Shown here in pieces: positions 13,578 to 62,340 of a DNA stretch of 64,000 nt. Numbering within the stretch: position 1 is the first letter of the stretch; every line of letters begins with the position of its first letter. The notes beneath the pieces were generated by a model. The model did no database searches. It was not told the origin of the DNA and was given only the letters and a program-made list of their open reading frames with translations. Origin of the DNA: Bdellovibrionota bacterium (GTDB taxonomy: Bacteria; Bdellovibrionota; FAC87; UBA2466; JACKAF01); contig JBGSIC010000018.1 of NCBI GenBank assembly GCA_041751875.1, positions 32,723-96,722 on the forward strand, written 5' to 3'. The position numbers and the translations under genes were made by a program.

Positions 13578-13774
13578 CTCTTCTCCCCCTCCCCACCAGT
13601 GTCTAGTGTAGTCCGACTGTATGCGGGCCATAGTACCTGTCTGTCAGATGGCATCACAGCTTAAGCTATTAGAATTATAAAGGAAAAATGGAGGTGTCGA
13701 ACTCCATGCCTGTACCGTACACTTTCTTGACTATTTCCCCTATCGAAATCGTCAATGATCCCAAGGGGGTAACT

Positions 13775-13797: not shown

Positions 13798-14027
13798 ATG
13801 AGTGCACACAGACAAGGACACGGCTCGAAGCTTAACGGCATCGAACAGCAACTAGAACGGCAACGAAGACAACAACACGATAGCAACTAGTAACGGCACC
13901 TGAGAAGACAACTTAGAACACAAAACGGATCGCAACTTGACTCGACTTGACTACACAACCGCTGTTTAAGTTTCCATAGCCGATTTTGAAAAGGGCTCCC
14001 AAACTCCAGGGAGCCCTTTTCTTTTTT
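13798..14027 (+). ncRNA. candidate small RNA (about 225 nt) with CAACTWG / AACGGCA repeat modules, ending in intrinsic terminator
   Basis: No ORF of 60 aa or more. Extreme A+C strand bias on the + strand across 13800-13960. Iterated motifs. Strong terminator hairpin at 13993-14016 plus a T-run. Confidence 0.3.
13990..14027 (+). terminator. rho-independent terminator (GGGCTCCC-N8-GGGAGCCC + TTTTCTTTTTT)
   Basis: Perfect 8-bp GC stem flanked by an A-run upstream and a T-run downstream. Could act bidirectionally. Confidence 0.7.
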
Positions 14028-26079: not shown

Positions 26080-26128
26080 TGTGAGCCCTTTATTGGAAAA
26101 ATCTCAGTCTACCTGCAAGAACCTACCG

Positions 26129-27268
26129 GTGACAATTCCCTTCGGTATTTACGTTCACATCCCGTTTTGCGTGCATAAGTGTTCTTACTGTGACTTCTAC
26201 TCTTTTACTCAGTATGGCCGGAACGACTTTGAGCGTCTTGAGGCGCAGCTCGTAAACGAGGTGCGTCAGATGGCCGCTTATATAAAAGAACGCCAGGGTA
26301 ACCTATCGCCGGTCACCAGTGTTTTTTTTGGTGGGGGCACTCCTTCCTTGATGCCCACCTCGTCGATTCAAAAAATTTGCGATACCTTGGCAGAAGAATT
26401 TCCTTTTGCAAAAGAGGTTGAGATCACACTAGAGGCGAATCCGGAAACCGTGGATGCGAGGTTTGCCGCCTCCCTTTTTGCGACACCGGTGAATCGGGTG
26501 AGCTTGGGAGCCCAAAGTTTTCAGGCCAAACATCTAAAATCTTTAGAACGGTTGGGTAGCGCGGAAAGTATTGTTTCTGCGGTCGGCTTTCTGAAAGAAG
26601 CGGGCTTTACGAATTTCAATCTTGATCTCATCACGGGAATCCCCGGACAAAGCGAAGAGGAGTTTCTGGAGGACATTGAAAAAGCGGTAAGCTTGGGGCC
26701 CACCCATCTGAGCTTTTACACCCTTACTTTAAAGAGCAAGCACCCGCTGGCCACTCAACTCCCCAGTGAAGACAAGGCTGCGGATCTGTATGAGGCAGGT
26801 ATCCGACGTTTGCAGATTTTGGGTTTTGATCAGTACGAGATTTCTAATTTCGCGCGTCCTGGTTTAGGTTGCCGACACAACCTTCTCTATTGGAGTGGGG
26901 GCGATTTCCTAGGCATTGGGCCATCGGCGTCGAGCCGCTTTTTCTGGGAGAGGGTGTTTCACCACCGAAAGCAAAAGGCCCACTTCGAAACTTACTTGGA
27001 GCTAAACGAATTTAGAAGTCTGCCATTTGAAACGACCACCAAAGCCCAAACTGTCCTCGAAGCGAGCTTTCTGGAACTGAGAACAAACGATGGTGTGGAT
27101 TTGGATCAGTTTCAAGCCCGATACGGGTACGACTTTAGAAAAGCAAAAAAGTATGAGCTTTTTGCAAAAAACGCGCTGATCCAGGAAAAGGACAACCGCC
27201 TTGTCTTAAGCCACCGCGGCCGCCTTCTTGCTGATTCTGTTACCGAGCAGTTGGTCGACTGGATCTGA
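26129..27268 (+). CDS. hemW: radical SAM heme chaperone HemW / HemN-like coproporphyrinogen III oxidase family
   Basis: GTG start gives MTIPFGIYVHIPFCVHKCSYCDF (CxxxCxxC) plus the HemN_C region. The upstream track extension would overlap the M16 gene start. Confidence 0.8.
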   Translation: MTIPFGIYVHIPFCVHKCSYCDFYSFTQYGRNDFERLEAQLVNEVRQMAAYIKERQGNLSPVTSVFFGGGTPSLMPTSSIQKICDTLAEEFPFAKEVEITLEANPETVDARFAASLFATPVNRVSLGAQSFQAKHLKSLERLGSAESIVSAVGFLKEAGFTNFNLDLITGIPGQSEEEFLEDIEKAVSLGPTHLSFYTLTLKSKHPLATQLPSEDKAADLYEAGIRRLQILGFDQYEISNFARPGLGCRHNLLYWSGGDFLGIGPSASSRFFWERVFHHRKQKAHFETYLELNEFRSLPFETTTKAQTVLEASFLELRTNDGVDLDQFQARYGYDFRKAKKYELFAKNALIQEKDNRLVLSHRGRLLADSVTEQLVDWI

Positions 27269-27274
27269 CTCCCG

Positions 27275-28420
27275 TTATTTCCTCACTGTTTTTATTGGAG
27301 CTTCGAGCGTATCGGGGTGCGGTAAAGCTATTGTCCTTTCGGAAATGGCGAGAAAAGTCGGAACCATTTTGCTGGCCAGACGATTGTGAATTTGGATGCT
27401 TGCATGCATATCTTTGCGACTTATGACTCGTTGTTCTGCTGGCCAATCGGTTACCCAGGTCGAGACATCGTGGACATCAACGTTGTGTTCCGCAGCAACA
27501 CGTTGGAGTGGCTCTCGGTAAGCGAGGCTTTCGTCAATCTGATTAAGAAAAGGGAAAATAACTAGCTGAGTCCTAATCCCTTTCCCGTTTGCCCATTTAA
27601 AAATCCGTTTTACGTCTTCGAGGTGCTTTTCCAGAATTTGTGGCGAGCGATACAGCGTAATCAGTTTGTTGCCTATATTCGAGGGATTCGGGAGAAACTT
27701 CCAGAATAGGAAATCGGCTAGGTACGAGTTTTTTACGAGGTATCTGAGCCAGCTGGAACGGCCTTCGAAGGGTGAGAAGGACAAGTCGACGCCCGCTTCG
27801 GCGGCCAGATAGTCGATGTCATTCCCAAAATAGACGTACAGCAAATGGTGCGGAATGAGGGGGTAATTGTGCAGAGCCCTTAATTGATCTCTGGTATTCC
27901 ATCCGTTTTGGGCAACGGTGTAGAAACGGTATTGCTTGCCCAGAGAGCGTTCTAATTGGTTTTGGAAGCGGTCTGACACATCATTTATTCCATGACCCGC
28001 GACAAAGGAGTCCCCTAGAACTACGACGTTCGTGGGATTGAACCCCGGATCGTGAGGCTCATTCAGGTCACGAAATCCAATCGAGTTAATGGGATTCCAA
28101 TAGACTCGAGCCCAATTGTGAGCGGCTTTAGCAAAGTTGAGACCGTGAGTCTCGGGGTAGTAGACGAAAAATCTCTCCAGGCCGCAGAGGACGGTTAAAA
28201 CAATCGTTGCTGTACACCAGAAGGAAGTCCAGTTCCGATTGAGATGGTGCCGCTTTTCAAGACGCAGGAGAAAAACGAGTGCTGTTGTCGCTAGTAGTAC
28301 CGGGACAAGCAGAAACCAATTCTTCAAAAAGCCGAAAAGACGGGTATAGAGGAATAGGCATACCAAGCTACAAAGGCCGACTGACATTACTGTGCAAAGG
28401 GCGTAAAGGCGGACTCTCAT
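27275..28420 (-). CDS. membrane-anchored SGNH/GDSL-family hydrolase
   Basis: N-terminal TM helices, then VVVLGDSFVAG (GDS(L) block I). ATG at 28420 versus GTG at 28459. Confidence 0.6.
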   Translation of the reverse strand: MRVRLYALCTVMSVGLCSLVCLFLYTRLFGFLKNWFLLVPVLLATTALVFLLRLEKRHHLNRNWTSFWCTATIVLTVLCGLERFFVYYPETHGLNFAKAAHNWARVYWNPINSIGFRDLNEPHDPGFNPTNVVVLGDSFVAGHGINDVSDRFQNQLERSLGKQYRFYTVAQNGWNTRDQLRALHNYPLIPHHLLYVYFGNDIDYLAAEAGVDLSFSPFEGRSSWLRYLVKNSYLADFLFWKFLPNPSNIGNKLITLYRSPQILEKHLEDVKRIFKWANGKGIRTQLVIFPFLNQIDESLAYREPLQRVAAEHNVDVHDVSTWVTDWPAEQRVISRKDMHASIQIHNRLASKMVPTFLAISERTIALPHPDTLEAPIKTVRK

Positions 28421-36810: not shown

Positions 36811-38465
36811 TTTATTTCCTTCTTGAGAGAGTAGATCGAGTAGTCTTCTCTGTTCCGCACTTCCTGGTGATATCTCTGTACGAAAGAATCGAGCTCTCTG
36901 TCCTCAGTGGGTTCATGCTTCATTTTCACAACCACATTGGAACCGGCGAGTTTCCCCTGATAGTAGCGCAGGCATTGGTTGCGTTCAGTTTGTGAGAACT
37001 GGATGCAGTTCCAAACGGTCGGTGTAGCCGGACGCATGCTGGTCATCAGGTAGCCCGCCGGGAAAGCATCATAGAAAAGAATGTGGCTTCCGGCATTTTC
37101 CAGTGTGCTGAGGTCAGCGGAAAGCTCCCCTAAAAAACGCGCGCGTGCGGGGGTGGTGTAAAGACCCGAGTAAACACCGGTTTTCATTTTGGCAGTGAGG
37201 GTAGGGACACTTCCATCTCCGTAAACCATCAGCAAAAAGTGGGAAAGAAAAAGAAGAACAAGAAGGACCGGAGCGGTGGCACGAATCCATCCTAGACTTG
37301 GTCGACCTGCTTCCTTGATCAGTCGCGATTGAATTAAATACAAAAGAAATAAGGAAACCAAAGCGGCAGGCAACATCCCCAAACCCGCCATCGTCGTGTG
37401 ATTGGTGCTACTCATCCCTGTGGCGATGCCAGCTGCAAGCGAGGGAATCCAGACGAGAAAGAATAAATGGCGGGCGACTGCGGTCTGAGCAGTAAAGACA
37501 AAGAAAAAAGGGCCCAGCAAAGCAAAGTACAGACTGATTTGGAGCGCGCCCAAGGAGGTTTGTACGGGAGCAACCCAGCAGAGTAGCGGTGTGAAACAAA
37601 GTAGTATCGCGGCGGCCGAGGGGCGATAGCGGGCGGTCGCGAAGGTGAGGAGTGAGAGAAAAAACACCCACGGTTTAGAGGGGCCCCAGTAGTAGAAATC
37701 ACGAACGAGAGAAAAAAGCTTCGGCCATGCGAGGCGGTTATTGTTTTCAGAAAAACTAAATTCTTTGGCGCGCTCAAGATCGGAAAGGGAAACTTGCGTA
37801 AACAACCATGCCGCCGTAAGGGCCCCACCTAGAACATAGGCAAGGAAAAGGCTCTTGTTTCGCCGCCAGGTCAGTAAAAGAAAAAATAGCGCGTAGGTCC
37901 CGACTCCAGGGACAAAGGAGGGATGCGCGATGACCGATATTCCTTGTGCCAGCCCCGCGAGCAACGCTAACCAGCTTGCCTTGCTCTTACTTTGTAGTGC
38001 GCTCCACCCGAGAAAGACGCCTGCGGTCCAGAAACCTATCGCCCAGGTGTTGTACGAGAGATTGGCAATCGAAAAGGGTACGAAAGCGATCGGGACGAGG
38101 GCAAACAAAAGGGCATAGTTTTTTCCAAGGCGTTTTCGCAAGAGAAAATAAAGCACGCCGGCAACACTGATGGAAAACAGGAGTGATAGTACACGCATAA
38201 AAAGCATCAGACCCGTTACACCAAACAAAGCATGATAGCCACGGACGAAAGGGAGCGAAATGAGGGAAAAAGTTTGGGCGAGCATCAAATCGTCTTTGAA
38301 GATCTGATCGCCCAAGACATAGCGGTAAGGCAGAGCAACGTAAAAACTCTCATCCCAGAAACTGATGCCATAGGGTAAGCGCCAAGCCATCGCGGCCACC
38401 ACAACCAACGCAAAGCATAGTGCTGCGTGTTGAAAAGTTAGGATTCGTTGGTTGGAGGGGTTCAC
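36783..38465 (-). CDS. GT-C family glycosyltransferase (ArnT/PMT-like, GT39/GT83-type)
   Basis: 560 aa with more than 10 TM helices. DE-containing first periplasmic loop (ISFWDESFYV) and a C-terminal soluble domain. Overlaps the methyltransferase 3' end by 28 nt. Confidence 0.7.
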   Translation of the reverse strand: MNPSNQRILTFQHAALCFALVVVAAMAWRLPYGISFWDESFYVALPYRYVLGDQIFKDDLMLAQTFSLISLPFVRGYHALFGVTGLMLFMRVLSLLFSISVAGVLYFLLRKRLGKNYALLFALVPIAFVPFSIANLSYNTWAIGFWTAGVFLGWSALQSKSKASWLALLAGLAQGISVIAHPSFVPGVGTYALFFLLLTWRRNKSLFLAYVLGGALTAAWLFTQVSLSDLERAKEFSFSENNNRLAWPKLFSLVRDFYYWGPSKPWVFFLSLLTFATARYRPSAAAILLCFTPLLCWVAPVQTSLGALQISLYFALLGPFFFVFTAQTAVARHLFFLVWIPSLAAGIATGMSSTNHTTMAGLGMLPAALVSLFLLYLIQSRLIKEAGRPSLGWIRATAPVLLVLLFLSHFLLMVYGDGSVPTLTAKMKTGVYSGLYTTPARARFLGELSADLSTLENAGSHILFYDAFPAGYLMTSMRPATPTVWNCIQFSQTERNQCLRYYQGKLAGSNVVVKMKHEPTEDRELDSFVQRYHQEVRNREDYSIYSLKKEINQIDEDRRG

Positions 38466-40852: not shown

Positions 40853-40856
40853 GTTC

Positions 40857-40878
40857 TAAAACGTGCCAGGCACCTTTT
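40857..40878. terminator. weak bidirectional terminator hairpin AAAA-CGTGCC-A-GGCACC-TTTT between convergent genes
   Basis: 5-bp GC stem flanked by an A-run and a T-run. The sequence is related to the intergenic repeat family. Confidence 0.3.
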
Positions 40879-40882
40879 GGAA

Positions 40883-41971
40883 CTAGCTGGCTAGTTTGGT
40901 TTGGGTGGGATCCGTTTTGGGATCGTTGATGGTCGGGTGACCGCCCAAGGGTTCGAGCGGTAAGGGCACCCAACATTGCTGGGTGTGTGCGAGCTTATCT
41001 GCTTGCTCCAAAATTCTCACCACACGTAAGCCCTGATAGCCATCCGTGCGCGGGGCAACCCCTTTTTGCAAGCAAGATACCATGTGGTTCACTTCGATTC
41101 GAAGAGCCTCAGTTTGATCTATCGCCGGTGAGTAGACATCGCCGTGGCGGTACTTAATGTAGTCCACGTAGCTTTTCTCTTTGTCAGCGGTTTCCAGCGC
41201 GTCCACACCTTTGTCGAATACCTTTATTTTCTGCACGACATCCACATCGTCGTACACAACCATCTTTTTCCGACCAGTCAAAACCGTGCGACGGATTTTC
41301 GAGGGCGACAACCAACTTGCGTGAATCGAAGCAATGAAGTTGTTTTGGTAGTTTAGGTGCATAAAGCCGATATCGGGTTGCGGCAAGCGAGCTGCGTTTT
41401 TCGCCGAAACTGAGATCTCAATCGGATCGTAGGGAATGAGTTCATTGAGAATGGAAAGATCATGCGCCATGAGATCAAAAATAACACTGATGTCCGGTTG
41501 ATAGAGGCCTAGGTTCATGCGCTCCGATTCGTAATAAAGGAGGTCGCCCAAGTCTTTCTTCTTCACCATCTCCTTCATGTAGGCAACAGCGGGGTGGTAC
41601 ACGTAGGTGTGGTCCACCATGAGCATCTTTTTTCGACGCTGGGCTTCTTCAATCAGATAAAGACTTTCCTTTTCCGTCGCCGTCATCGGCTTGGTAATCA
41701 AAAGATGTTTGTCGGCCTTAAGCGCTTTCATACCCAACGCGAAATGACTATGGACGGGAGTGGCGATGACAATCAGGTCGAGATGCGTGTCTTCAAAAAG
41801 ATCGTCGGCGCGCGTCGTGGTACGCACGGAAGGGTAACGTTGGCCTAGCTTTGCCAAACGTTTGGTGTCGAGGTCACACATCCACAAAACTTTCATGTCC
41901 TCGTTCTCGAAGAGGTTTCTAAGTAAGTTGGGACCCCAGTAGCCTATACCGATGATGCCGGCGCGTATCAT
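40883..41971 (-). CDS. Gfo/Idh/MocA-family NAD(P) oxidoreductase (GnnA/WbpB-like sugar dehydrogenase candidate)
   Basis: GIIGIGYWGPNLLRNL Rossmann N-terminus. 362 aa. Confidence 0.8.
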   Translation of the reverse strand: MIRAGIIGIGYWGPNLLRNLFENEDMKVLWMCDLDTKRLAKLGQRYPSVRTTTRADDLFEDTHLDLIVIATPVHSHFALGMKALKADKHLLITKPMTATEKESLYLIEEAQRRKKMLMVDHTYVYHPAVAYMKEMVKKKDLGDLLYYESERMNLGLYQPDISVIFDLMAHDLSILNELIPYDPIEISVSAKNAARLPQPDIGFMHLNYQNNFIASIHASWLSPSKIRRTVLTGRKKMVVYDDVDVVQKIKVFDKGVDALETADKEKSYVDYIKYRHGDVYSPAIDQTEALRIEVNHMVSCLQKGVAPRTDGYQGLRVVRILEQADKLAHTQQCWVPLPLEPLGGHPTINDPKTDPTQTKLAS

Positions 41972-45836: not shown

Positions 45837-46185
45837 CGGACAAGTCTTTTGCGAAGCCAGTATGATTTGTTTTTTGGTCGTTCTGGCACTTGTTCTCAAT
45901 ATTGAAATAGTTCGTCGAGCGGGTTGGGAAACTACGTTGCAATACGCCAGTTTCAGATTCGCCCGGAAGCGTGCGATGGGCAAAAGTGATCGGAGAGCTA
46001 GAGACGAAGTGAGATCCTTTCTGCTTCTCACCGGAGCTCATGGCAGGGGAGGGCCTCGGTTAAAGTGGACGAGTCACATTTCCTGGGACGACAAAATGGT
46101 GGGAAAAATCTCCACGCGCTTTCCTTCGCTTCTGGCTCTTCCAGATAAACATCACTACGAAATGACCAAAGCATGCAGGTTTTAG
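45799..46185 (+). CDS. TadE-like pseudopilin
   Basis: MILGKRRSIKGTSGQ-VFCEASMICFLVVLALVLNIEIVRR parallels the TadE N-terminal domain (basic leader, hydrophobic helix, IEFGR-like end). Start is uncertain (45769, 45799 or 45862). Overlaps the flp 3' end. Confidence 0.45.
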   Translation: MILGKRRSIKGTSGQVFCEASMICFLVVLALVLNIEIVRRAGWETTLQYASFRFARKRAMGKSDRRARDEVRSFLLLTGAHGRGGPRLKWTSHISWDDKMVGKISTRFPSLLALPDKHHYEMTKACRF

Positions 46186-46760
46186 TGCTCCTTTCCCTTC
46201 CCGTCTTTGTGGCAAGTCTTGCTGCTTCGCTCGATTTGTACAAAGAGGTGTACCGATTGGAAGAACGCACCATCGGTGTGGATAACGCGGGAATAAGCTT
46301 AGCCAGCGCAGACGCCCATCTGTTCAACCATTTTGAGAAAAGTAAGAGAACCTTTGACCGTCTCGAAACGGCTCATCATATCGTGCATCTTTGTGCGCGC
46401 TCCGCTGTCGCGACAGCGGCTTGCCTTAAGCAGGATGTGGCGCTGGAGAAAGCCCTTACTGTTTCGGCGAACTTGCTATGGAAGAGTCTGCAAATCAAAT
46501 GGACTAAAAATCTGATCGCCGCCCAAAGCGAGGCGATAAAAAGGCGCACCACAGTTTGCATAAAACACCGGCCCCGTCTTCCCCCGTTTGAAAGAGGCGT
46601 TTGCGAAACATGCAGCCTCCCTGTGAAATGGAAGCAAACGGTTCGGCGTCCGCTTTGGGAAGTTTCCGAATGTCCACAAAGAAACGCCCCTCTCGTTATT
46701 CAAACACTATTGGAAAAAAGTCCCTCTGGAAAATGGTGGAGCCGCTTGAGGGAAGGGTGA
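46173..46760 (+). CDS. hypothetical protein with N-terminal hydrophobic helix (possible TadF/TadG-like)
   Basis: MQVLVLLSLPVFVASLAASLDLYKEV N-terminus. The Cys-rich C-terminal half is of doubtful coding quality. Confidence 0.3.
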   Translation: MQVLVLLSLPVFVASLAASLDLYKEVYRLEERTIGVDNAGISLASADAHLFNHFEKSKRTFDRLETAHHIVHLCARSAVATAACLKQDVALEKALTVSANLLWKSLQIKWTKNLIAAQSEAIKRRTTVCIKHRPRLPPFERGVCETCSLPVKWKQTVRRPLWEVSECPQRNAPLVIQTLLEKSPSGKWWSRLREG

Positions 46761-46918
46761 AAACAAAAGGCACTTTTCTCATCGAGGGGTTTCTGGTGAT
46801 TTGGCTTTTAGTCGCTGTGATAGGCACGGTTCATCTTTCGCTTCTTTGTAAAACCCAACGTGAACTTAAGGTTCTTCAAGAAAAGCGGCTGCACTATAGT
46901 AGAGAGAGCCCGCCATGA
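46733..46918 (+). CDS. small prepilin-type N-terminal cleavage/methylation-motif protein
   Basis: MVEPLEGRVKTKG/TFLIEGFLVIWLLVAVIG has Glu at +5 after Gly, then a hydrophobic helix. Its stop overlaps the cpaB ATG (ATGA). Confidence 0.35.
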   Translation: MVEPLEGRVKTKGTFLIEGFLVIWLLVAVIGTVHLSLLCKTQRELKVLQEKRLHYSRESPP

Positions 46919-47604
46919 AGGGGGCTCAGTTTCCGAAATGTTCCCGCCGAAGGGCGCAACTACTTTTCTCTCTTTTTGTATCTTGCTGCGTAGGAATGGT
47001 GGTCGTGTGGGAAGTTTTTCGGTTCACAAATCGCTCCCTTGATCAGGTGGAAGATTACCTTCTCGTGGCTCGCCGAGATTTGAAGGGGGGGCACCGCGTG
47101 ACGCTTCAAGATCTTTCTCTCGTTCCGGAATCAAACTGGCATGTGGAAAGAAGCGCGGATGCTCTCACGGATGCCGATCTTGAGTTTGTAGGAAGAAGGT
47201 TGATAGCTGACATCAGCGGCGGAACCCTCTTTACGCGTTCCCTCTTTAAGCCCCCCGAGTCCAAGGCTACGTGGGGTGCGAAGGTTCCGAAGGGCTTTAG
47301 AGCGTATGCGCTTTGCGTGGAAACAGTCCTTCCCGTTCAAGCCAAAGACAGGGTGGACCTGGTTCATTCAGAGAAGCGGAGCGCTGCTCAGGTAGCGGAG
47401 GATCTTTTGGTGTTGGGGGTGCGGCCTTGTGAAGGGGGAAGGGAGGTAATTCTTGCGGCGCGTCCTAAAGACGTTGAGTTGGTGGAAAAGGCGCGCCAAA
47501 CAGGTAAACTAACAATAGTCATTCGAAACCCCGCCGATAAAAAACGAAACCGGCACCGAAAGAAAACCAACCCAGCTAAGGTGATTATTTGGAACGAAGA
47601 GTAA
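46915..47604 (+). CDS. cpaB: Flp pilus assembly protein CpaB/RcpC-like
   Basis: N-terminal TM, SAF-like segment (LLVARRDLKGGHRVTLQDL), then a C-terminal RcpC-like region. Confidence 0.6.
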   Translation: MKGAQFPKCSRRRAQLLFSLFVSCCVGMVVVWEVFRFTNRSLDQVEDYLLVARRDLKGGHRVTLQDLSLVPESNWHVERSADALTDADLEFVGRRLIADISGGTLFTRSLFKPPESKATWGAKVPKGFRAYALCVETVLPVQAKDRVDLVHSEKRSAAQVAEDLLVLGVRPCEGGREVILAARPKDVELVEKARQTGKLTIVIRNPADKKRNRHRKKTNPAKVIIWNEE

Positions 47605-48881
47605 AAAGTGGGGTTTTGAGAACTTTACGAAAGACGCTAGGGGGGCATCCTCTTGTATGGGGCCTAATCTTTTCCTACGGCATTGCCCAGGCCGTACCCA
47701 TTCCAACTCGTGAGCGGGTGCTCGGCATCGCCCAGTTGGGAGTTCCGGCAGATATCTCCCATTCGCGCGCGTATCCCCTGCTGGAAAAGAAACTCGAAAA
47801 CTTTTTGGAAAAACTGGGTCGCACACCCGTCAAACGTTCCCCAATCACTCTTCCCAAAAGTCAGGTGCAGATGTTGACCGCCAGCACTCAGGTACAAAAA
47901 CAAACCGAAAGTCTGACGGTAGCGCTTAGCGAAGATGCTTCCTCTTTGAAGTCTGTTCATGCAGCGCTCGACCAAACCCTGAGCGCTTATCCCATTCATT
48001 TTCCTTCAGCGGGAATCTGGCAGCGCGCCTATGTGGCACAAGCGGCGTATTGGTGGCAACGGCAGAATAAAGAAAAGGCGCTGGAATGGTTGAGCCGTGC
48101 GGCGTTGCTGCATCCGGATCAAAAGATCCAGGATAGCAGTTCGTTTGCCTTTGAGGCACAGGCGCAACCTAAACTTTGGCTGGCGTTTGATTCCCAGTTG
48201 GAAAATCAGCCCTCTTTACTCAACTATTGCGCGGTGGAAGTGGTTGTTCCGAAAATGCCTCACTCAGGAAACATAAGGGTGAACGGTTTTTCGTTTGGAA
48301 CTCGCCGGGCTTTTCGCCTTCCTTTGGGAGGGACCTATCTTTTCGACTTCAGTCATGAAAAGTGGAGCTCCACGCGGGAAATGGTTCGTTGTCAGAAGGT
48401 GAGCAAAATCCGAGTGGAGTTAGCTCTGGTTCCCAAGAAAGAAGATTTCTTGGCCCTTGATTCCCGTAACGTGTCAGAGGAAAGCTCATCGGTTGTTTTG
48501 ATCGAATCACTCCAAGATCGCTTTCGTTTTTTTCTCTATACACCGGGCGAGGCCTTGGACGAGATCCCTCTCGAAAAGCCAGTGCGAATCGCAGAACTTC
48601 TAGAAGATCCTCTTTCCGCCACAGTTCCTATTCAAAGCGATGCGCTTAAGCACTTGCTTGAAAAGCACGAGGGAAGCCCTTTGAGTCTGGCAACGCTCTC
48701 GCTGGATTCTCCGTCATTTGCAGGTCAGGAAGAGCACGGTGTCACGACGCCTTGGTACAGGGACTGGAAAGTTTGGGCGGTAGCCGGCGGCATCGTGGGC
48801 GGTGTGATCGCGGTTCACTTAGCGACGAAAAAATCAGAGGTAACAGGCCAGGCCCACGGCCTGAGAATCGAGATTAAATAA
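47589..48881 (+). CDS. secreted hypothetical protein with TPR-like motif and C-terminal TM anchor
   Basis: Signal peptide ...PLVWGLIFSYGIAQA. TPR-like AYVAQAAYWWQRQNKEKALEWLSRAALLHPD. C-terminal helix WAVAGGIVGGVIAVHLA. Not a secretin. Confidence 0.4.
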   Translation: MERRVKSGVLRTLRKTLGGHPLVWGLIFSYGIAQAVPIPTRERVLGIAQLGVPADISHSRAYPLLEKKLENFLEKLGRTPVKRSPITLPKSQVQMLTASTQVQKQTESLTVALSEDASSLKSVHAALDQTLSAYPIHFPSAGIWQRAYVAQAAYWWQRQNKEKALEWLSRAALLHPDQKIQDSSSFAFEAQAQPKLWLAFDSQLENQPSLLNYCAVEVVVPKMPHSGNIRVNGFSFGTRRAFRLPLGGTYLFDFSHEKWSSTREMVRCQKVSKIRVELALVPKKEDFLALDSRNVSEESSSVVLIESLQDRFRFFLYTPGEALDEIPLEKPVRIAELLEDPLSATVPIQSDALKHLLEKHEGSPLSLATLSLDSPSFAGQEEHGVTTPWYRDWKVWAVAGGIVGGVIAVHLATKKSEVTGQAHGLRIEIK

Positions 48882-54000: not shown

Positions 54001-56523
54001 ATGATCCAGACTCTCGCTAAAAAAGTTTTTGGCAGCGCCAATGAGCGCTACGTAAAGCGCCTGCGTCCCTTGCTTGAACAGATCGCAGGCTATGAAAGCC
54101 AACTGCAAACCCTTTCCTCGGAGCAACTCGCCGCAAAAACGGTGAGCTTTCGTGAAAAGTTGCAGAGTGGTGCTACGCTCAACGATATTTTGCCTGAGGC
54201 ATTTGCGGTAGTACGTGAAACCTCTCAACGCGTTCTGGGAATGCGTCATTTCGACGTTCAGCTTATTGGCGGGATTGTGCTTCACGAAGGCAAAGTTGCC
54301 GAAATGAAGACCGGTGAAGGCAAGACTCTCATGGCCACCCTCCCGGTTTACCTCAACGCGCTCGCCGGGCTCGGTGTGCACGTGGTCACCGTCAACGATT
54401 ATCTCGCTAAACGTGACAGCGAATGGATGGGCCAGGTTTATCAGGCTCTGGGTTTGACGGTCGGTTGCATTGTTCATGGCCTTAACGATCGGCAGCGCCG
54501 TGAGAGTTATGCGGCTGACGTTACCTATGGCACGAATAACGAATTTGGTTTTGATTATCTGCGCGACAACATGAAGTTTCGCTTGGAAGACTACGTCCAG
54601 CGCGAACTCAACTACTGCATTGTCGATGAAGTGGATTCCATTTTAATTGATGAGGCGCGCACGCCCTTGATCATTAGTGGGCCTACGGAAGATTCCACCG
54701 ACAAGTACTACATCATCAACGCGATTTTACCGGGCCTGAAGAAAGAAGAAGATTTTACGATTGAAGAGAAGTCGCGAACAAGCGCTCTGACCGAAGCGGG
54801 TGTCGGCAAAGTGGAAAAAGCCCTTCGCGTGGATAACTTGTACGCGCCGGAAAATATTGAGTTAGTTCATCACGTTCACCAAGCCTTAAAGGCCCATGCC
54901 ATTTTCAAGCGCGATGTGGATTACGTAGTGAAAGATGGCCAGGTAATCATCGTTGATGAATTTACCGGTCGTCTTATGCCGGGCCGTCGCTATAGTGATG
55001 GACTCCACCAGGCGCTCGAAGCCAAAGAGAACGTCAAAATTGAGAACGAGAACCAGACACTCGCAACGATAACGTTCCAGAACTATTTTCGCATGTACAA
55101 AAAGTTGTCTGGCATGACGGGTACCGCCGATACCGAAGCGGCTGAATTCCAGAAAATTTACAATCTAGAAGTGATGGTGATTCCCACCAACCGGCCCATG
55201 GTGCGCCAAGATCATGCGGATGTGGTGTACAAGAACGAAGCAGCGAAGTTGCGTGCCATAGCCAAAGAAATTCAGGAAATGCAGCAAAAAGGGCAACCGG
55301 TTTTGGTTGGTACCACTTCCATCGAGAAGTCTGAACGCTTAAGTGAAGTGCTGAAACGCACGGGCGTGCAGCACCACGTACTAAACGCGAAGCAACATGA
55401 GCGCGAAGCAGAAATTGTCGCGAACGCGGGACAGAAGGGCTCGGTAACGATTGCCACTGCGATGGCTGGTCGCGGAACGGACATTGTGCTTGGCGAGGGC
55501 GTGGCTCAGATGGGCGGCCTACATATTATCGGAAACGAACGACACGAATCGCGACGCATCGATAATCAGTTCCGAGGGCGATCGGGTCGTCAGGGAGACC
55601 CTGGCTCCAGCCGTTTTTACCTCTCATTGGAAGATGACCTTTTGCGTATTTTCCAGGGTGAAAAAATTAAAGGTTACATGGAACGCTTCAATATGGAGGA
55701 GGACGTCCCCATTGAGTCGAAGCTGATTTCACGCGCGATTGAAAACGCGCAAAAGAAAGTAGAATCTCACAACTTCGATATTCGTAAGCATCTCCTCGAA
55801 TATGACGATGTGCTCAATAAGCAGCGTGAGGTCGTATACGAGCTGCGAAAACTTATTCTTTCGGGACAAAACACACGCGCGCTTATTTTGGACATTATTC
55901 GGGAGCAGGTAGATGGCGTGGTCGGAACCTTCGCTTCTACGAAGCTCAAAGCGGAGTGGGATCTTAAGGGACTTACCGAGACACTGCAGTTTTTGTTCGA
56001 CAATGATCTGGGACTTGCTGCCGGAGCGCCGGACCAAGTAGAAAACTCGGATCAATTTGCGGATTGGATCTACGAGCAAGGAGTCAAAGCGTACGAAGCG
56101 CGAGAGCAGTCGATGACTCCCGACGTGATGCGCCAGCTCGAAGAGTGGGTTTATTTGGGTACGATTGACCAGTTGTGGAAGGATCACCTTCTCAACATGG
56201 ATCACCTCAAAGAAGGCGTGGGGCTTCGGGGCTACGGGCAAAAAGATCCTTTGGTCGAATACAAGAAAGAGGGGTTTGAGCTCTTTAAGCTGATGGACGA
56301 GCAGGTTAAAACTGACGTCCTTAGCAAACTGTTCCGTGTTCAGGTGAATCGGCAAGAACAGGTGGAAGACCTGCAGCCCAAAGAACAAAAAATGACCCTT
56401 TCTCGTGGCGAAGCTGCGGGTAGCGCTGAGGCGCCAACCCGTCGACAGGATGAAAAAGTGGGTCGCAATGATCCGTGTCCGTGCGGTAGCGGCAAAAAAT
56501 TTAAAAAGTGTCACGGGGCCTAA
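54001..56523 (+). CDS. secA: preprotein translocase ATPase SecA
   Basis: 840 aa. DEAD-like motor motifs ([27 protein letters not shown]). C-terminal zinc finger [14 protein letters not shown]. Confidence 0.95.
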
Positions 56524-56525
56524 CA

Positions 56526-57266
56526 GTGGATTCCATTTGCCCTAAATGCCTCAGCCAGTTGCAACACGAAGAAGGCATGAGCAATGTCACGTGTCAGGTC
56601 TGCGGGACGCAGTATGATCCGCGAGAGGAAACAGGTGATCTGCCTCCGTTGGATATGGCTTTCACCCGAGAAGAGAGCAGCGAGGAAGTTTCGCACGCGG
56701 CAGGCCTTCGCACCCCTCTGAACGAACTCCCCACCAATGAGGGCGATAGCGGCGATTTTGAGGAAGTAAAGCTACCTGCCATTGATAACGCGATGGACGA
56801 GATGGAGAGCGAGAACCTGCCTCCCGTAGATGAACTCGACCCGTTTAGTCAGGGCGACAAGGCTAAAGATTTTCAACAGAGCGAATCGGTGTTCGAAGAA
56901 CTTCGTAATTTTGGCGAATCTCTCCAAGAAGACGAAGAGGATATTGAGAAAACCAATCCGACGCAGGGGTCAGCAAAGTTGCCCCAATCCCCTGCTGCAC
57001 CGAAGGCAAGTGGTGGCGGACTCGCGATGACATCGGCCCCTGTTCTCCAGGGGTTTAAGATTGGCCATTATTTCACACCCGTTTCCCTTTCAGCCGCGGT
57101 GAAAAGGGATGCCGAAGAACCTCTCAAAGAGGCGTTTGGTAAATTCAATCAGAAAGTCTCAGAAACGGGCGCAAACGCCGTGGTCGATCTCAAATGGAAT
57201 TTATCGGGAGACGGCTCCAAGGTTTTGATTTGCGGAACGCCCGTGAAATGCGTTAAGGAGAGCTAG
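56526..57266 (+). CDS. zinc-ribbon plus UPF0145/YbjQ-like domain protein
   Basis: CPKC...CQVC ribbon, acidic linker, and C-terminal ...GANAVVDLKWNLSGDGSKVLICGTPVKC resembling the YbjQ fold. GTG starts at 56508 or 56526, abutting the secA stop. Confidence 0.55.
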   Translation: MDSICPKCLSQLQHEEGMSNVTCQVCGTQYDPREETGDLPPLDMAFTREESSEEVSHAAGLRTPLNELPTNEGDSGDFEEVKLPAIDNAMDEMESENLPPVDELDPFSQGDKAKDFQQSESVFEELRNFGESLQEDEEDIEKTNPTQGSAKLPQSPAAPKASGGGLAMTSAPVLQGFKIGHYFTPVSLSAAVKRDAEEPLKEAFGKFNQKVSETGANAVVDLKWNLSGDGSKVLICGTPVKCVKES

Positions 57267-57375
57267 GCCAGGTGCCTGCTGTCTGAAAAAGTGCCAGGTC
57301 ACTTTCCGTACTTCGTCCGGAAAGTGCACAGGCACCTTTTCCGAAACGGCTGGCACCTTTTCCCAAAGGTGTAGC
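57267..57375. repeat. palindromic intergenic repeat element, copy A (about 90 bp)
   Basis: About 85 % identical to the reverse complement of 60931..61025. Internal hairpin CACTTTCCG-N9-CGGAAAGTG and direct repeat GGCACCTTTTCC x2. Confidence 0.6.
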
Positions 57376-57430
57376 TCTGAAACCACGCACCCCCGATCTC
57401 CGTCCTCTTACTTCCCGAGCGCTTACCAGT

Positions 57431-57892
57431 GTGATGGATACCCTACGTGCCGAGTTTCCCGGCACTCATGTGCTCGACCTTTACAGCGGAAAAGGCCGAT
57501 TTGGTTTCGGGGCGCTTGAGGAGGGAGCCAAGCGTGTTAGCTTCGTGGAAAAAAGTCCCAACGAGGCAGAAACACTAAAAAAGGAAGGGAAGAAATGGGC
57601 TGAAGGGTGCCGTGTGTTTTCAAACGATGTGTTTGCGTACCTTCACCGCGCGAAGGAAGAAAACTCTGTTTTCGATATTGTATTTGCCGATCCGCCGTTC
57701 CGCTTGTGGGAAGGTAAGTATTCGGAAGAATTGGTGAATGCGGTTCTGCCGGTGCTAAAGAAGCCGGCAATTTTTCTTGTGAGACACCCTAAGAAGGTGG
57801 TAGTTTCCTTTGCGATTCCGGCCTTGGAGGAGTGGAAAACTTCGATTTTTGGGGACTCCAAGCTGATTTATTTTTCCCATGTAGGTGGTTAG
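57431..57892 (+). CDS. rsmD: 16S rRNA (guanine966-N2)-methyltransferase RsmD (apparently 5'-truncated)
   Basis: VLDLYSGKGRFGFGALEEGA...DIVFADPPF match RsmD motifs. The in-frame upstream sequence (57365-57430) encodes the RsmD-like KGVALKPRTPDLRPLTSR but has no start codon, and further upstream is the repeat element. Confidence 0.7.
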   Translation: MMDTLRAEFPGTHVLDLYSGKGRFGFGALEEGAKRVSFVEKSPNEAETLKKEGKKWAEGCRVFSNDVFAYLHRAKEENSVFDIVFADPPFRLWEGKYSEELVNAVLPVLKKPAIFLVRHPKKVVVSFAIPALEEWKTSIFGDSKLIYFSHVGG

Positions 57893-58371
57893 TGTCTCGC
57901 GTTGCGGTTTATCCAGGAACTTTTGATCCCATCACAAACGGTCACGTTGATCTCGTAAACCGGGCTCTGACCGTTTTTGATAAAGTCATCATTCTCGTCG
58001 CGCATTCTGGCAAAAAGACACCCCTCTTTGACCCCAAAACCCGTATGGAGCTCATTCGAGAGTGCTTTCCCGGCAACGGTCGTATCGAGGTCGATCAATA
58101 CGAAGGACTTTTGGTCGACTACGCCAAGAAAAAAAATATTCTTACTGTGTTACGCGGGCTTCGTGCCGTTTCAGATTTTGAGTACGAATTTCAAATGTCG
58201 ACGATCAATCGGCGCATGTACCCACAGATGCAAACCTTTCTTCTTATGGCATCGGAGAATTATTTTTTCGTCAATTCTACCTTGGTGAAGGAAGTTCTTT
58301 CTCACGGAGGGGATATTTCGGAAATGGTTCCCGCACACGTGAATCAGAAACTGAAGGAAAAATTATGTTGA
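57892..58371 (+). CDS. coaD: phosphopantetheine adenylyltransferase
   Basis: GTG start overlaps the rsmD TAG (TAGTG) after an AGGTGG SD. MSRVAVYPGTFDPITNGH matches the CoaD N-terminus. Confidence 0.9.
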   Translation: MSRVAVYPGTFDPITNGHVDLVNRALTVFDKVIILVAHSGKKTPLFDPKTRMELIRECFPGNGRIEVDQYEGLLVDYAKKKNILTVLRGLRAVSDFEYEFQMSTINRRMYPQMQTFLLMASENYFFVNSTLVKEVLSHGGDISEMVPAHVNQKLKEKLC

Positions 58372-59546
58372 AGTATTCGAATCGGACTCAGTCGCTTAAG
58401 CCGAGTTCGACCATGGAAATTACGGCGAAAGCGGCGCAGCTTCGCGCTGAGGGCGTCGACGTGATTAGCCTTGCGGCGGGAGAACCTGACTTTAATACGC
58501 CAGTTGAAATTCAGCAGGCCGCAACGGAAGCCATGGCGAAGGGCATTACGCGCTATACGCCGGCGGCGGGTTTCTTAGCCTTGAGGGAAGCGATCGCCCA
58601 GAAGGTAAGTGAAGAAAATAATTTCCCCGTAAAGCCCACGGAAGTGGTGGTGACTTCGGGTGCGAAGTACGCCCTTTACCTGGCGTTGCAGTGTTTGGTG
58701 GAAGAGGGAGAATGCGTGCTGGTTCCGACCCCGGCATGGGTGAGCTATCAAGCCATGATTGAGCTCGCCGGCGCCTCGATTGTGCCCTTGCCCCTATTTG
58801 AGGAAGACGGATTTCGGGCCAATGTGGATCGTTGGAAAGGGATGGCCATCCCCAAGAATGCGCGCGGGATCATTCTCAACTCTCCCAACAACCCCACCGG
58901 TGTGGTGTACAACAAAGAAGACCTGGTGAAGATCGTCAGCTGGGCGCTGCAGCGAGATTTGTGGGTGATGAGTGACGAGGTATACGAGAAAATTTTGTTC
59001 GACGGAGTCACTCACACTAGCGTGGCATCTCTCGGACCGGAAGTGAAAGATCACACCATCACCATCAGCAGCGTTTCCAAAACTTACGCCATGACGGGGT
59101 GGCGTGTGGGCTGGGCCATTGCGCAGACCCCTCTGGCGCAAAAAATGGCCGCGTTGCAGAGCCAGAGCACGAGCAACGTGACGAGCTTTGCCCAAATGGC
59201 GACCCTCGCCGCTTTTAATATGAAAAAAGAATCTGTCGACCAGATGCTTTCGGTTTTCGAAAAGCGCCGTGCCTACTGCGAGCAGCGACTAGACCGTTTA
59301 TCCCAGTACATCAGCTATGTTCGTCCTCAGGGAGCCTTTTATTTCTTTCTCAACCTCTCGCGCTGGCTAGATGATCGCAAGATGTCGGACTTAGACTTCT
59401 GCAAGGTACTGCTCGACAAAGCCCATGTGGGGATGGTTCCCGGTACCGCGTTTGGTAAGGAAAAGTTCGCGCGCATGAGCTACGCGACTTCCGATGCTAA
59501 TCTCGAGAAAGCCTTCGACCGTATTGAAAAGTTTCTTAAAGCCTAG
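58365..59546 (+). CDS. class I/II PLP-dependent aminotransferase (aspartate aminotransferase-like)
   Basis: 393 aa. The SKTYAMTGWRVGW region contains the PLP-Lys. Overall AspB/AspC-like pattern. Confidence 0.85.
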   Translation: MLKYSNRTQSLKPSSTMEITAKAAQLRAEGVDVISLAAGEPDFNTPVEIQQAATEAMAKGITRYTPAAGFLALREAIAQKVSEENNFPVKPTEVVVTSGAKYALYLALQCLVEEGECVLVPTPAWVSYQAMIELAGASIVPLPLFEEDGFRANVDRWKGMAIPKNARGIILNSPNNPTGVVYNKEDLVKIVSWALQRDLWVMSDEVYEKILFDGVTHTSVASLGPEVKDHTITISSVSKTYAMTGWRVGWAIAQTPLAQKMAALQSQSTSNVTSFAQMATLAAFNMKKESVDQMLSVFEKRRAYCEQRLDRLSQYISYVRPQGAFYFFLNLSRWLDDRKMSDLDFCKVLLDKAHVGMVPGTAFGKEKFARMSYATSDANLEKAFDRIEKFLKA

Positions 59547-59560
59547 GCCCTAAACCTGTT

Positions 59561-60904
59561 TTAGAACGCGTTGCCGAATTCCACGTTGAATGTGGTGCCT
59601 TCTCGCGAAAGACCAAAGTCGGCGCGCAAGACCATTCGGTAGTTCCAAATGGAACGAAGCCCCAGCCCCACCGCTCCATGAAAGGGGCCGAACGTGACAG
59701 GTTGGTTTTTGTTCCACACGCGGGCAATATCTAGAAACGGAACAAACCCCACTGTGACTCTTTGGCGTTTGAAATAAAAAGTAATCGGATCCCAACGCAT
59801 TTCAACACTCGTCGCAAACTTGATATCGCCGATATATTGGTTTTCATAAACACCGCGCAAAAAGCGCGAAAAGCCAAAGCCTTGCGAAGGGTCTTGACCC
59901 CCGGTAGACCCGAGTTCGTAAAAGGGCGTATTGCCTACCATGGCTTCGAAAAAAGTTCGGTGCGCCAAGGTAAGAGTGCGATCCAAAGGCCAGTACTTAC
60001 GAAACGTATAGGTTCCACGAAAGAAATTGTAGTCGCTGCCAATGACGTTGTTGTAAATCGTCAAGTAAAGCTCGTGTGACGTTCCCCGCGCCGGGTAAGG
60101 CTCGAAATCGGTGGTGTCATTGATGATGGCAACGCCTAGGTAATTGGTGCGCCCACCCGCGATCCCCACGGGTTTTTCGATGTCCATCAAACTTCCCGTC
60201 GGATAGCTAATCGTCGTAGTTGCCACACCAAAAACCGGTCCGATTGTCAGGTATTTTCCGAAGCGCTTTAAAACTTCCACATCCAGACGCGGTTGCAGGC
60301 GGGTGTTGAGATAAATGGGATTTTCATTTTCCACCCAGTCATCGTTCACGTCAGTCGTGTTCGAAATACCAAAATAGCGGCGCATGATATCGCGGTTGAG
60401 ACTGACGCGTCCTCTAATGCGAAACTGGCCATCGAAAGCGTGCGGTGAATCCACCAAAAGAAAGTGGCGCATTCGACCGCGATCGCTGGCGAGCACCTGC
60501 CCGGAGAGCTTAAGTTTGTGAGGATCCTGGCGGCGAATGTTGTAGAGAGAAACGTGCACACCGAGGTTACTACCCTGGTGTTTGGTAATAAAGAAAATGG
60601 GCAAACCTTGCACAGTCCAAGGATCACCCATGAGTTCAAATGATTTCTTTTTGATGAGTCGATCGAGACTCAATACCGCTTTTTCCCCCAGACTTGTGAC
60701 GGCCGGGGGAGGCGTGACGGCCTCTAGTACCGTGTTGAGTGGGCTGCGCGTGGGCGGTTTCGCAACGGCTTTGTACTTTTGGGATGAGGCCGGTCGGCGA
60801 ACAGGGGGTTGTTTTTTTAGGGCCTTTTTTTTGGCGGCTTCCCCCTGGGGACACACAGCCGCACACGCCAGAAAAAGGCAAAGCAATACAACGCGTCGCA
60901 ACAT
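59561..60904 (-). CDS. Omp85/Bac_surface_Ag-family outer-membrane beta-barrel protein with Lys/Pro-rich N-terminal extension
   Basis: C-terminal blocks LRGVYENQYIGD, PFLDIARVW and TFNVEFGNAF align with BamA/TamA barrel motifs. Signal peptide from Met at 60904. Confidence 0.65.
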   Translation of the reverse strand: MLRRVVLLCLFLACAAVCPQGEAAKKKALKKQPPVRRPASSQKYKAVAKPPTRSPLNTVLEAVTPPPAVTSLGEKAVLSLDRLIKKKSFELMGDPWTVQGLPIFFITKHQGSNLGVHVSLYNIRRQDPHKLKLSGQVLASDRGRMRHFLLVDSPHAFDGQFRIRGRVSLNRDIMRRYFGISNTTDVNDDWVENENPIYLNTRLQPRLDVEVLKRFGKYLTIGPVFGVATTTISYPTGSLMDIEKPVGIAGGRTNYLGVAIINDTTDFEPYPARGTSHELYLTIYNNVIGSDYNFFRGTYTFRKYWPLDRTLTLAHRTFFEAMVGNTPFYELGSTGGQDPSQGFGFSRFLRGVYENQYIGDIKFATSVEMRWDPITFYFKRQRVTVGFVPFLDIARVWNKNQPVTFGPFHGAVGLGLRSIWNYRMVLRADFGLSREGTTFNVEFGNAF

Positions 60905-60930
60905 GGCGGCCTGGATCTTCACGACCTGAC

Positions 60931-61025
60931 ATTGTCTTCGAAGCGAAGGTGCCTGTCTACTTTTGGAAGGTGTCTGTGCACTTTCGGGACGAAGTACCGA
61001 AAGTGACCTGACACCTTTCCGGTCT
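60931..61025. repeat. palindromic intergenic repeat element, copy B (inverted relative to copy A)
   Basis: Lies between two outer-membrane protein genes. Hairpin CACTTTCGGG-N8-CCGAAAGTG. Confidence 0.6.
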
Positions 61026-61660
61026 TAGAACTGAAAGGTAAGCGCCAGCCCACCGAAGAATCCCGACAGATCAAAATCCGCGGCGCCCGCGAGGTAGGGA
61101 GCGCCACCATTGTTCAGTGCGCCCAGATTGGCGAAGCGGTAGCCTGCGTAGAAAGCAAAAGAATGAAGACTACTAAAATGAATCCCCAGTTGGACGCGAG
61201 CGAAATACGCAAGCGGAGAGGTGACGGGAGAAAAAGTCCCCGTGGTGCTCTGAATTTCCGCATTGAGTGGATAATTTAGCCCCGCACTAAAGAGGAAATA
61301 CATGCGGTCCCGTTCTTTAAGAAAACCAATTTCCCCCCCCACGGTTTGGTAGTTCAGCGTGTCTTCTTGAACGGGTCCTCCTGTCATAAAGACCCGTTTG
61401 GCGAGCCAGTGATCAAAATTTAAGGTAAGGAGCCAATTGCGATAAAGCAAAACTCCGATGCCTCCACCGACCACAAAGCCTTCGCTAAATTTTGTCGTGT
61501 ACGTCGCTCCCGAATCGTTGTCCGCCGCCGACGAGGTGAGCGGGAACTCTCCCCGTAGCTGCACCACCCATTGGAAGTCCTTGGTCGGCTTCCTCCAACG
61601 GGCATGGGCCTCCCCGGGAACGAAAAGGAAAACCGCCATAATAAGGACAAAAAAGCGCAT
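61025..61660 (-). CDS. small outer-membrane beta-barrel protein (OmpA-like/OmpW-like, hypothetical)
   Basis: Signal peptide MRFFVLIMAVFLFVPGEAHA. Alternating strands. C-terminal ...LTFQF. Confidence 0.5.
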   Translation of the reverse strand: MRFFVLIMAVFLFVPGEAHARWRKPTKDFQWVVQLRGEFPLTSSAADNDSGATYTTKFSEGFVVGGGIGVLLYRNWLLTLNFDHWLAKRVFMTGGPVQEDTLNYQTVGGEIGFLKERDRMYFLFSAGLNYPLNAEIQSTTGTFSPVTSPLAYFARVQLGIHFSSLHSFAFYAGYRFANLGALNNGGAPYLAGAADFDLSGFFGGLALTFQF

Positions 61661-61740
61661 GTCCTTTCCTATCGGCAGAATTCGCTCTAAAGTAAAAGAG
61701 AAGCATTTAAAGGTGTTTACGCCATTTTGAGGGCCCCTAG

Positions 61741-62340
61741 ATGACGCCTAGAGCGCGGTACTCCGCTTTTTTAAACGTATTGTTTCCGGGTTTGGGACAC
61801 GTTTACATCGGCGAGTACTCTCGTGGTTTGGCCCTTTTTGTGGCCTTTGTGCTTCTGCTCTCGATGCCCTTTACGCGCTTTTGCATTCCGCTTTTGGGAA
61901 TTTACGCCGGCTGGGAAAGTTTCAAGCGGGCGGGCGGAAAGGACAGAGATTCCATCCTGAGTTCCAAAGCTGAGGAAGTGGCCTATCTCAAAGAGTCCTT
62001 CCCACGCGCACGACTGCCCCTCTATCTGCTGGTGGGAGCCTTAGGGGCAACGTGTTGGCTTTTGGCGCTCTATCCCTTTAGCGGCGACGCTGGGCGCTCT
62101 GGTCGGGCGGCGGAACAGGCTCGTGGCCTATCCCAGAAAATACGGGCGTGCGAGAATGAAACCGGTGTTCTTCCCCCCACCCTGGAAAACTGTATCCAGC
62201 CTGAAGAAGCAGCTCACCTGCGGACCGATCCGTGGGGCCAGGCCTATCTGTATGAACCTATCGACGGTGGCTTTGAAATTCGTTCCAAAGGCCCTGATCT
62301 GCGGTCTCGCACGGCAGACGATCTCATCTATATCTTTTAA
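61741..62340 (+). CDS. membrane protein with C-terminal T2SS GspG-like (pseudopilin globular) domain
   Basis: C-terminus DPWGQAYLYEPIDGGFEIRSKGPDLRSRTADDLIY matches the GspG C-domain pattern (DPWGxxYxY...G.DG...DDI). The N-terminus has TM helices but no prepilin cleavage motif. Confidence 0.5.
   Translation: MTPRARYSAFLNVLFPGLGHVYIGEYSRGLALFVAFVLLLSMPFTRFCIPLLGIYAGWESFKRAGGKDRDSILSSKAEEVAYLKESFPRARLPLYLLVGALGATCWLLALYPFSGDAGRSGRAAEQARGLSQKIRACENETGVLPPTLENCIQPEEAAHLRTDPWGQAYLYEPIDGGFEIRSKGPDLRSRTADDLIYIF

Follow-up and report, generated by a model that had tools for sequence, protein, structure and literature searches.

Two full copies of a palindromic repeat of 80-110 nt, lying 3.6 kb apart, were identified in the window (the complete stretch of DNA that we analyzed, 64 kb in length), together with what is probably a third, smaller copy. 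On balance, we favor the view that this repeat is a lineage-specific, low-copy, non-coding insertion element of a palindromic, MITE/REPIN-like kind, which would be transcribed together with the neighboring genes and carried in their mRNA as an intercistronic hairpin. The three loci, and the genes that bound the two full copies, are as follows.

57267-57376, forward strand: copy 1, the entire inserted spacer, with the layout L0, L1, core hairpin, R1, R2 and a Shine-Dalgarno (SD)-like tail.
57264-57266 and 57377, forward strand: bounds of copy 1, namely the TAG stop codon of a 252-aa gene upstream and the in-frame CTG of rsmD downstream.
About 60943-61021, reverse strand: copy 2, with the layout L1, core, R1 and R2, and without L0.
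61025-61027, and GTG 60922 or ATG 60904: bounds of copy 2, namely the TAA stop codon of a 211-aa gene and the start of an Omp85-family gene.
40853-40883, forward strand: mini copy (GTTCTAAAACGTGCCAGGCACCTTTTGGAAC), the outer stem (L1/R1) without the core; it had been placed at 40857-40880 before.

Copies, modules and folding of the repeat

A search for inverted repeats placed the pair of arms 57287-57338 and 60967-61018 at the top of the whole window (52 nt, 90% complementary), and the next-ranked inverted repeats (29-31 nt, 71-76%) correspond to the chance background. When copies 1 and 2 were compared directly with blastn-short, a stretch of 44 nt was aligned with 93% identity (E = 1e-12). 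These results bear out the initial annotation of two full copies of a non-coding palindromic intergenic repeat. The same annotation gave their identity as about 85%; the similarity is real, but when 57284-57362 and the reverse complement of 60941-61020 are aligned globally, 64 of 83 columns are identical, so that the identity amounts to 77% over the full 79-nt span and reaches 90% in the 52-nt core. The similarity between the two copies ends with the element, and their flanks do not align. Moreover, the genes that precede copies 1 and 2 encode unrelated proteins rather than paralogs, which rules out that the repeat is the common 3' end of duplicated genes. Each full copy is flanked by co-directional genes, and the two are oriented alike with respect to transcription. 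No ATG, GTG or TTG start codon is located inside the element in the forward frames across copy 1, and its length of 80-110 nt is within the range of bacterial MITEs (about 50-500 bp), which likewise have no coding capacity of their own. A covariance model built from the two copies scored 110.8 bits for copy 2 (reverse strand) and 102.9 bits for copy 1, and the antisense strand of copy 1 also fits the full model (48 bits). Elsewhere in the 64-kb window there was no third significant match to this model; a match at 29719-29782 was rejected because it is located inside a coding region. The number of full copies in the 64 kb is therefore two.

The element is assembled from short modules.

57270-57278, forward strand: L0 (AGGTGCCTG), which pairs with R2 and has no counterpart in copy 2.
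57286-57298, forward strand: L1 (AAAAAGTGCCAGG), the left arm of the outer stem, which pairs with R1.
57300-57326, forward strand: core hairpin of copy 1 (CACTTTCCG, loop TACTTCGTC, CGGAAAGTG).
57329-57340, forward strand: R1 (CAGGCACCTTTT), the right arm of the outer stem.
57350-57361, forward strand: R2 (CTGGCACCTTTT), the second right-arm module, 21 nt after R1.
60979-61005, reverse strand: core hairpin of copy 2, which on the forward strand reads CACTTTCGG-GACGAAGTA-CCGAAAGTG (CACTTTCGG-N9-CCGAAAGTG).

Read on the sense strand of the neighboring genes, L1 has the consensus (A/G)AA(A/G)GTG(C/T)CAGG. The core consists in both copies of a 9-bp stem and a 9-nt loop (TACTTCGTC) that is identical in the two, and it is flanked on both sides by CAGG in the full copies (gcCAGGtcac ... 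gcaCAGGcacc). R1 (consensus CAG(G/A)CACCTT) is followed by a spacer of 9-10 nt and then by R2, which reads C(T/A)GGCACCTT. The outer stem is thus composed of inverted copies of a 9-mer module, AGGTGCCWG / CWGGCACCT. The exact sequence AGGTGCCWG occurs five times in the 64 kb and all five sites fall within the three reported loci, which shows that the GGCACCTT modules described before at the ends of the element are real. The tandem spacing of R1 and R2 at 21 nt is visible by eye and lies below the threshold of Tandem Repeats Finder. Between the copies, conservation is greatest in the center and least at the ends, the reverse of what is typical of MITEs and REPINs, in which the ends are best conserved. 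Because the extra module L0 pairs with R2, copy 1 is a nearly complete palindrome of 110 nt; the reverse complement of its right end agrees with its left end (GCCAGGTGCCTGCTG) at 11 of 15 positions. As a separate observation, the window holds two 57-nt direct repeats (8267-8398, forward strand; 72% identical and 75 nt apart) within a gene for an ornithine/DAP decarboxylase-like protein (8023-9264), which probably represent an internal protein repeat or chance.

The mini copy takes up all 30 nt that separate two convergent genes, which encode a PseC/DegT-like aminotransferase and an oxidoreductase. It is probably related to the full copies, as judged from its resemblance to their outer stem. 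The claim of a shorter related hairpin holds in so far as the 22-mer that is obtained by deleting the core from the outer stem (AAAAAGTGCCAGGCACCTTTTC) fits the mini copy with 2 mismatches, with no match in 100 shuffles, although this construct was chosen post hoc and the covariance model gives the mini copy only E = 0.2. As CAGG stands on both sides of the core, the full element might be read as a core nested inside the loop of a mini-type hairpin. The members of the family are thus found at 40.9, 57.3 and 61.0 kb of the window, a spread of 20 kb. Since the mini copy, a probable relative, is separated from the full copies by 16 kb, the family probably extends beyond a single locus.

The sense-strand RNA of copy 1 folds with -57.2 kcal/mol (z = -6.8) and that of copy 2 with -38.1 kcal/mol (z = -4.4), and in neither case did a shuffled sequence fold as well. 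The long hairpin with an N9 core that had been noted in each copy is therefore upheld, the core being as described. The corresponding DNA folds have z-values of -6.4 for copy 1 and -3.9 for copy 2. It should be noted here that these values do not tell RNA and single-stranded DNA apart as the relevant structure, since both strands fold about equally. The element would be co-transcribed with its neighbors and fold in the transcript as a long intercistronic RNA hairpin, and single-stranded DNA could fold likewise. Four of the five differences between the two cores make up two compensated pairs (C-G to G-C, and C-G to T-A), the pair that is C-G in copy 1 and G-C in copy 2 being located in the core stem. 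A third compensated pair is found in the outer stem, which brings the pairs altered on both sides to 3 of 24. In a simulation of 5 random substitutions, at least 2 compensated pairs arose with P = 7.6e-4. Because the compensated pairs go beyond this simulated chance level, we conclude that the hairpin has been actively preserved.

The insertion at the rsmD junction

The window derives from an uncultured, Bdellovibrionota-like bacterium. When the extended RsmD translation was used as a search query, the relatives retrieved were distant (39-55% identical), and those with a name were MAGs of Bdellovibrionaceae, Bdellovibrionales, Bdellovibrionota or Deltaproteobacteria. Five related lineages served for the empty-site comparison (L009/L010/L011, L031, L012/L013, L032 and L033; RsmD 45-55% identical). 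The window and all five lineages share the gene order secA, a gene of unknown function, rsmD, coaD and an aminotransferase gene, which is followed on the opposite strand by the Omp85-family gene and then a further gene of unknown function. In all five lineages the start of rsmD overlaps the stop codon of the upstream gene, to an extent that ranges from 1 nt (TAATG; L009, L010, L011 and L031) through 10 nt (L033) and 16 nt (L032) to 19 nt (L012/L013). The upstream protein ends at the same residue (...GTPVKCVKES* in the window versus ...GTPVQCAKAE* in L009), and RsmD resumes at an equivalent point (KPRTPDLRP in the window versus KSRRDPPDLRP in L009). In the window, 110 extra nucleotides (57267-57376) are located exactly between the upstream stop codon and the RsmD N-terminus. 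Because the genes overlap at this junction in all related lineages that were retrieved, copy 1 represents a lineage-specific insertion of about 110 nt, although the distance of the empty-site relatives means that it can be neither dated nor given exact ends. The earlier suggestion of a non-autonomous inserted element agrees with this picture, in which the site is filled in the window and empty in five related lineages. The insertion would have abolished the ancestral overlap between stop and start.

At the site of copy 2, the spacer measures approximately 102-120 nt in the window, whereas L009 and L031 have 70 nt and L032 has 13 nt, and no such hairpin is present in the spacers of these three relatives. 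Likewise, a covariance-model search of 90 kb of the relatives' loci did not detect any copy. In L009, the closest relative, the spacer at this site (13660-13680, reverse strand) starts with TAA-GCCAGGTAAACCTTTC, and copy 1 in the window starts with TAG-GCCAGGTGCC; the GCCAGGT that directly follows the stop codon in both may be due to chance or may be a remnant of a related module. Candidates for a target-site duplication are TAG/TAG or the imperfect pair AAGGAGAGCT / AAGGTGTAGCT for copy 1, and TTCTAAGAC / TTCGAAGAC for copy 2 (8 of 9 positions, with a rough post-hoc P of ~0.04). As read from the sequence, no target-site duplication of consistent length is definable across the two copies.

The public annotation of rsmD (P0001) predicts a protein of 152 aa that starts at ATG 57434, and the extended gene covers 57377-57892 on the forward strand. 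Five residues of the extended RsmD (R39, P40, R44, L46 and S48) are invariant in 12 of 12 aligned sequences, and they are encoded upstream of the first canonical in-frame start codons (GTG 57431 and ATG 57434). Judging from this alignment, the public annotation probably truncates the protein. Between the in-frame stop codon at 57284-57286 and position 57431, the only near-cognate codons are CTG 57350 and CTG 57377. A start at CTG 57377 would result in an N-terminus of the same length as that of the homologue P0006 (MIKKTPDLRP), and this codon is preceded by an SD-like motif.

57365-57371, forward strand: SD-like AAAGGTG, followed by 5 nt.
57377-57379, forward strand: in-frame CTG, the probable non-canonical rsmD start.

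We infer that rsmD is now probably translated from CTG 57377; the alternative to a CTG start is that the gene is N-terminally crippled. In folds of a larger region, the hairpin is closed at its base by AGAGCUA (57259-57265), which includes UA from the start of the upstream stop codon, and UAGCUCU (57372-57378), which includes the CU of the CTG; these two segments pair with each other. Through this predicted pairing, the old stop codon (57264-57266) and the new start, with its AAAGGTG and CTG 57377, would be brought side by side, and the upstream gene and rsmD may have kept a coupling of termination to initiation.

Alternative explanations and searches for further copies

An explanation that we regard as unlikely is that the repeat is not mobile and that a cis-regulatory element was duplicated locally. 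It could be a structured 5'-leader RNA or the operator of a dimeric DNA-binding protein (9-bp inverted repeat, 9-nt spacer, flanking AGGTGCCWG sites). Either would have been copied once from one promoter-proximal position to a neighboring one, and rsmD-coaD-aminotransferase and the Omp85-family gene would be co-regulated by it. The full copies are indeed located directly upstream of the first genes of two convergent units, only 3.6 kb apart and in the same orientation. An identical loop, a covarying stem and a center that is better conserved than the ends would also suit a functional motif more than a transposon. The other 60 kb of the window contain no further full copy, and mobile-element genes are absent from the window. 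However, relatives with the identical gene order carry the element at neither site, which is not what is expected of a conserved regulator, and no Rfam family matches. In addition, copy 1 destroyed both the stop/start overlap and the canonical start of rsmD, which resembles the collateral damage of an insertion more than a regulation that evolved. The mini copy is a misfit for a regulon of two sites, as it is found at a distance of 16 kb, where it separates convergent genes for sugar modification. Two specific regulatory identities were also rejected. A sigma-54 promoter is suggested by TGGCAC in R2, but in our reading of the sequence there is no -12 GC element at the required distance. A CIRCE-like operator has the same 9-N9-9 geometry, but it differs in sequence from the repeat, which has no heat-shock genes next to it.

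The initial annotation further proposed that the repeats may serve as transcript-end hairpins, an idea that received little support. In this explanation, which we consider improbable, the loci would be intrinsic or bidirectional terminators, attenuators or mRNA-stabilizing 3' stem-loops that are alike by common design. All three loci begin within a few nucleotides of a stop codon, the mini copy exactly fills the gap between convergent genes, and the outer stem has a 5' A-run and a 3' T-run (AAAAAGTGCC...GGCACCTTTT), as in a bidirectional terminator. The full copies thus share with an intrinsic terminator a stable stem-loop straight after the stop codon and an A-run and a T-run that flank the outer stem, but they differ from it in that no U-tract follows the stem and in that both are located inside strings of co-directional genes. 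Indeed, a terminator scan (positions 56400-61800 in the case of the full copies) called none of the three loci, and the T-run of copy 1 has only 4 nt, while that of copy 2 has decayed to CTTCC. A genuine terminator in the window (13989-14027), with a GC-rich stem that is followed by TTTTCTTTTTT (T-run 4 + 6), differs strongly from the repeats. If copy 1 acted as a strong terminator, rsmD-coaD-aminotransferase would be silenced, and no promoter-like site is present after it. Both full copies are situated within formerly compact operons instead of at transcript ends. Finally, 90% identity over 52 nt, including the loop, argues for common descent and not for convergence. The genuine terminator (AAAAGGGCTCCC-AAACTCC-AGGGAGCCCTTTTCTTTTTT) is the end of an A/C-rich, T/G-poor stretch (13800-14027, forward strand) with many CAAC, AACA and (ARN)n motifs, located in a 551-nt gap upstream of a dnaJ-like gene. 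This stretch may encode a small RNA, although no Rfam family matches it at the gathering score.

A more far-reaching account, which we hold to be distinctly doubtful, views the repeat as an undescribed self-nesting hairpin insertion that spreads without a classical transposase, couples stop and start through the stem base across 110 nt and leads to CTG initiation. Each layer would have the form (A)AGGTGCC...GGCACCTT(T) and would be seated in the loop of the next one, the order being the mini hairpin, then L1/R1 around the core, and then L0/R2 around that. Such an insertion would be tolerated inside operons because its palindromy holds the stop and the start together at the base of the stem.

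The least plausible account, in our opinion barely credible, takes the inverted copies for recombination sites at the two ends of a 3.6-kb segment, invertible or mobile, that runs from rsmD to the Omp85-family gene: the copies are mutually inverted and bracket a block of four genes, but these are housekeeping genes, their order and orientation are identical in relatives that lack the repeats, and the window encodes no recombinase, invertase or transposase. The TR/VR pair of a diversity-generating retroelement was rejected as well, because the differences between the copies are not adenine-specific and no reverse transcriptase is present.

With regard to the insertion element that we favor, we searched a range of sequence collections for further copies, and the window for genes that might mobilize it. 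The pattern GTCACTTTCNG-N7-11-CNGAAAGTGCA was encountered 8 times in 185,579 species-representative genomes, the copies of the window itself not being among them, and 17 times in JGI metagenomes. In viral contigs, a less strict pattern matched 5 times. We regard these hits throughout as due to chance, because they occur singly, in unrelated taxa and without the flanking modules. Distant-mode blastn searches against plasmids, phages and 5,426 E. coli genomes returned no match. Six-frame peptides of both copies matched nothing at E-values up to 10 among 5.8 billion predicted proteins, a search of low power since intergenic copies are rarely called as genes. Rfam 15 contains no family that reaches its gathering score at the copies, and at E-values up to 10 only noise was obtained. 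The single Rfam match of the window is a 6S RNA gene (RF00013; 44779-44954, forward strand; 82.9 bits, E = 7e-15), which is flanked by two genes of unknown function that lie 293 nt apart.

A Pfam analysis of the approximately 60 ORFs of at least 90 aa in the window detected no transposase, RAYT, integrase, invertase or recombinase. The spread of the element could have depended on a transposase or a RAYT that acts in trans from elsewhere in the genome, or it could have occurred by templated or recombinational copying. Approximately 27 of these ~60 ORFs have no Pfam match at E-values up to 1e-5 (for example 18148-19734, 20144-23443, 36783-38465 and 46173-48881), including one that encodes a protein of 1099 aa, which fits a poorly sampled lineage. 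In the crude gene map, 1.2 kb within 25853-27275 were left without a chosen gene; this region is covered by an ORF of 471 aa with a TTG start (25853-27268, forward strand), which overlaps the end of an M16 peptidase gene.

Relation to known repeat families

Several families of small palindromic repeats are known from other bacteria. Correia elements of Neisseria and similar bacterial MITEs such as RUP are inverted-repeat elements of ~100-150 bp that are intergenic and co-transcribed, and their hairpin can alter downstream gene expression. Their terminal inverted repeats are well defined, the length of the target-site duplication is fixed (TA for Correia), and the copies number in the tens to hundreds. 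The present repeat is likewise a small intergenic inverted-repeat hairpin element, but copy 2 lacks the left terminal module, no consistent target-site duplication emerges, and 2-3 copies are seen in the window. The ERIC/IRU elements of enterobacteria are imperfect palindromes of ~127 bp in transcribed intergenic regions, and their versions differ by internal deletions or insertions. Our mini copy resembles a full copy minus the core in the same manner as the ERIC size versions resemble each other. However, the sequences are unrelated (no match in 5,426 E. coli genomes), the phylum is a different one and the observed copy number is far lower.

REPINs, as described for Pseudomonas fluorescens SBW25, are REP doublets that form hairpins and are mobilized by RAYT transposases; they have invariant ends and a variable central spacer, and compensatory changes keep the hairpin intact (PMC3116915). 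The present element is similar to REPINs in being extragenic and non-coding, in its length (~70-110 nt) and in the inverted short modules that give rise to a long hairpin in single-stranded DNA or mRNA, and compensatory changes are found in both. It differs from them in that the core and the loop are most conserved and the ends decay. Furthermore, REPINs reach tens to hundreds of copies and REPs flank the RAYT gene, whereas 2-3 copies are present here in 64 kb and there is no RAYT in the window; sequence similarity to genomes that bear the REP/BIME elements of E. coli is also absent.

A literature search for Bdellovibrio and MITE returned one paper, in which each term occurred once. If the repeat is dispersed in the genome, it would be, as far as we have found, the first small palindromic repeat family in a Bdellovibrionota-like lineage. 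Copy 1 would then also provide a clean natural example of such an element that landed exactly in an overlapping stop/start junction, after which the housekeeping gene rsmD has to start at a non-canonical codon or forfeit its conserved N-terminus. The element is otherwise an ordinary one for bacterial genomes.
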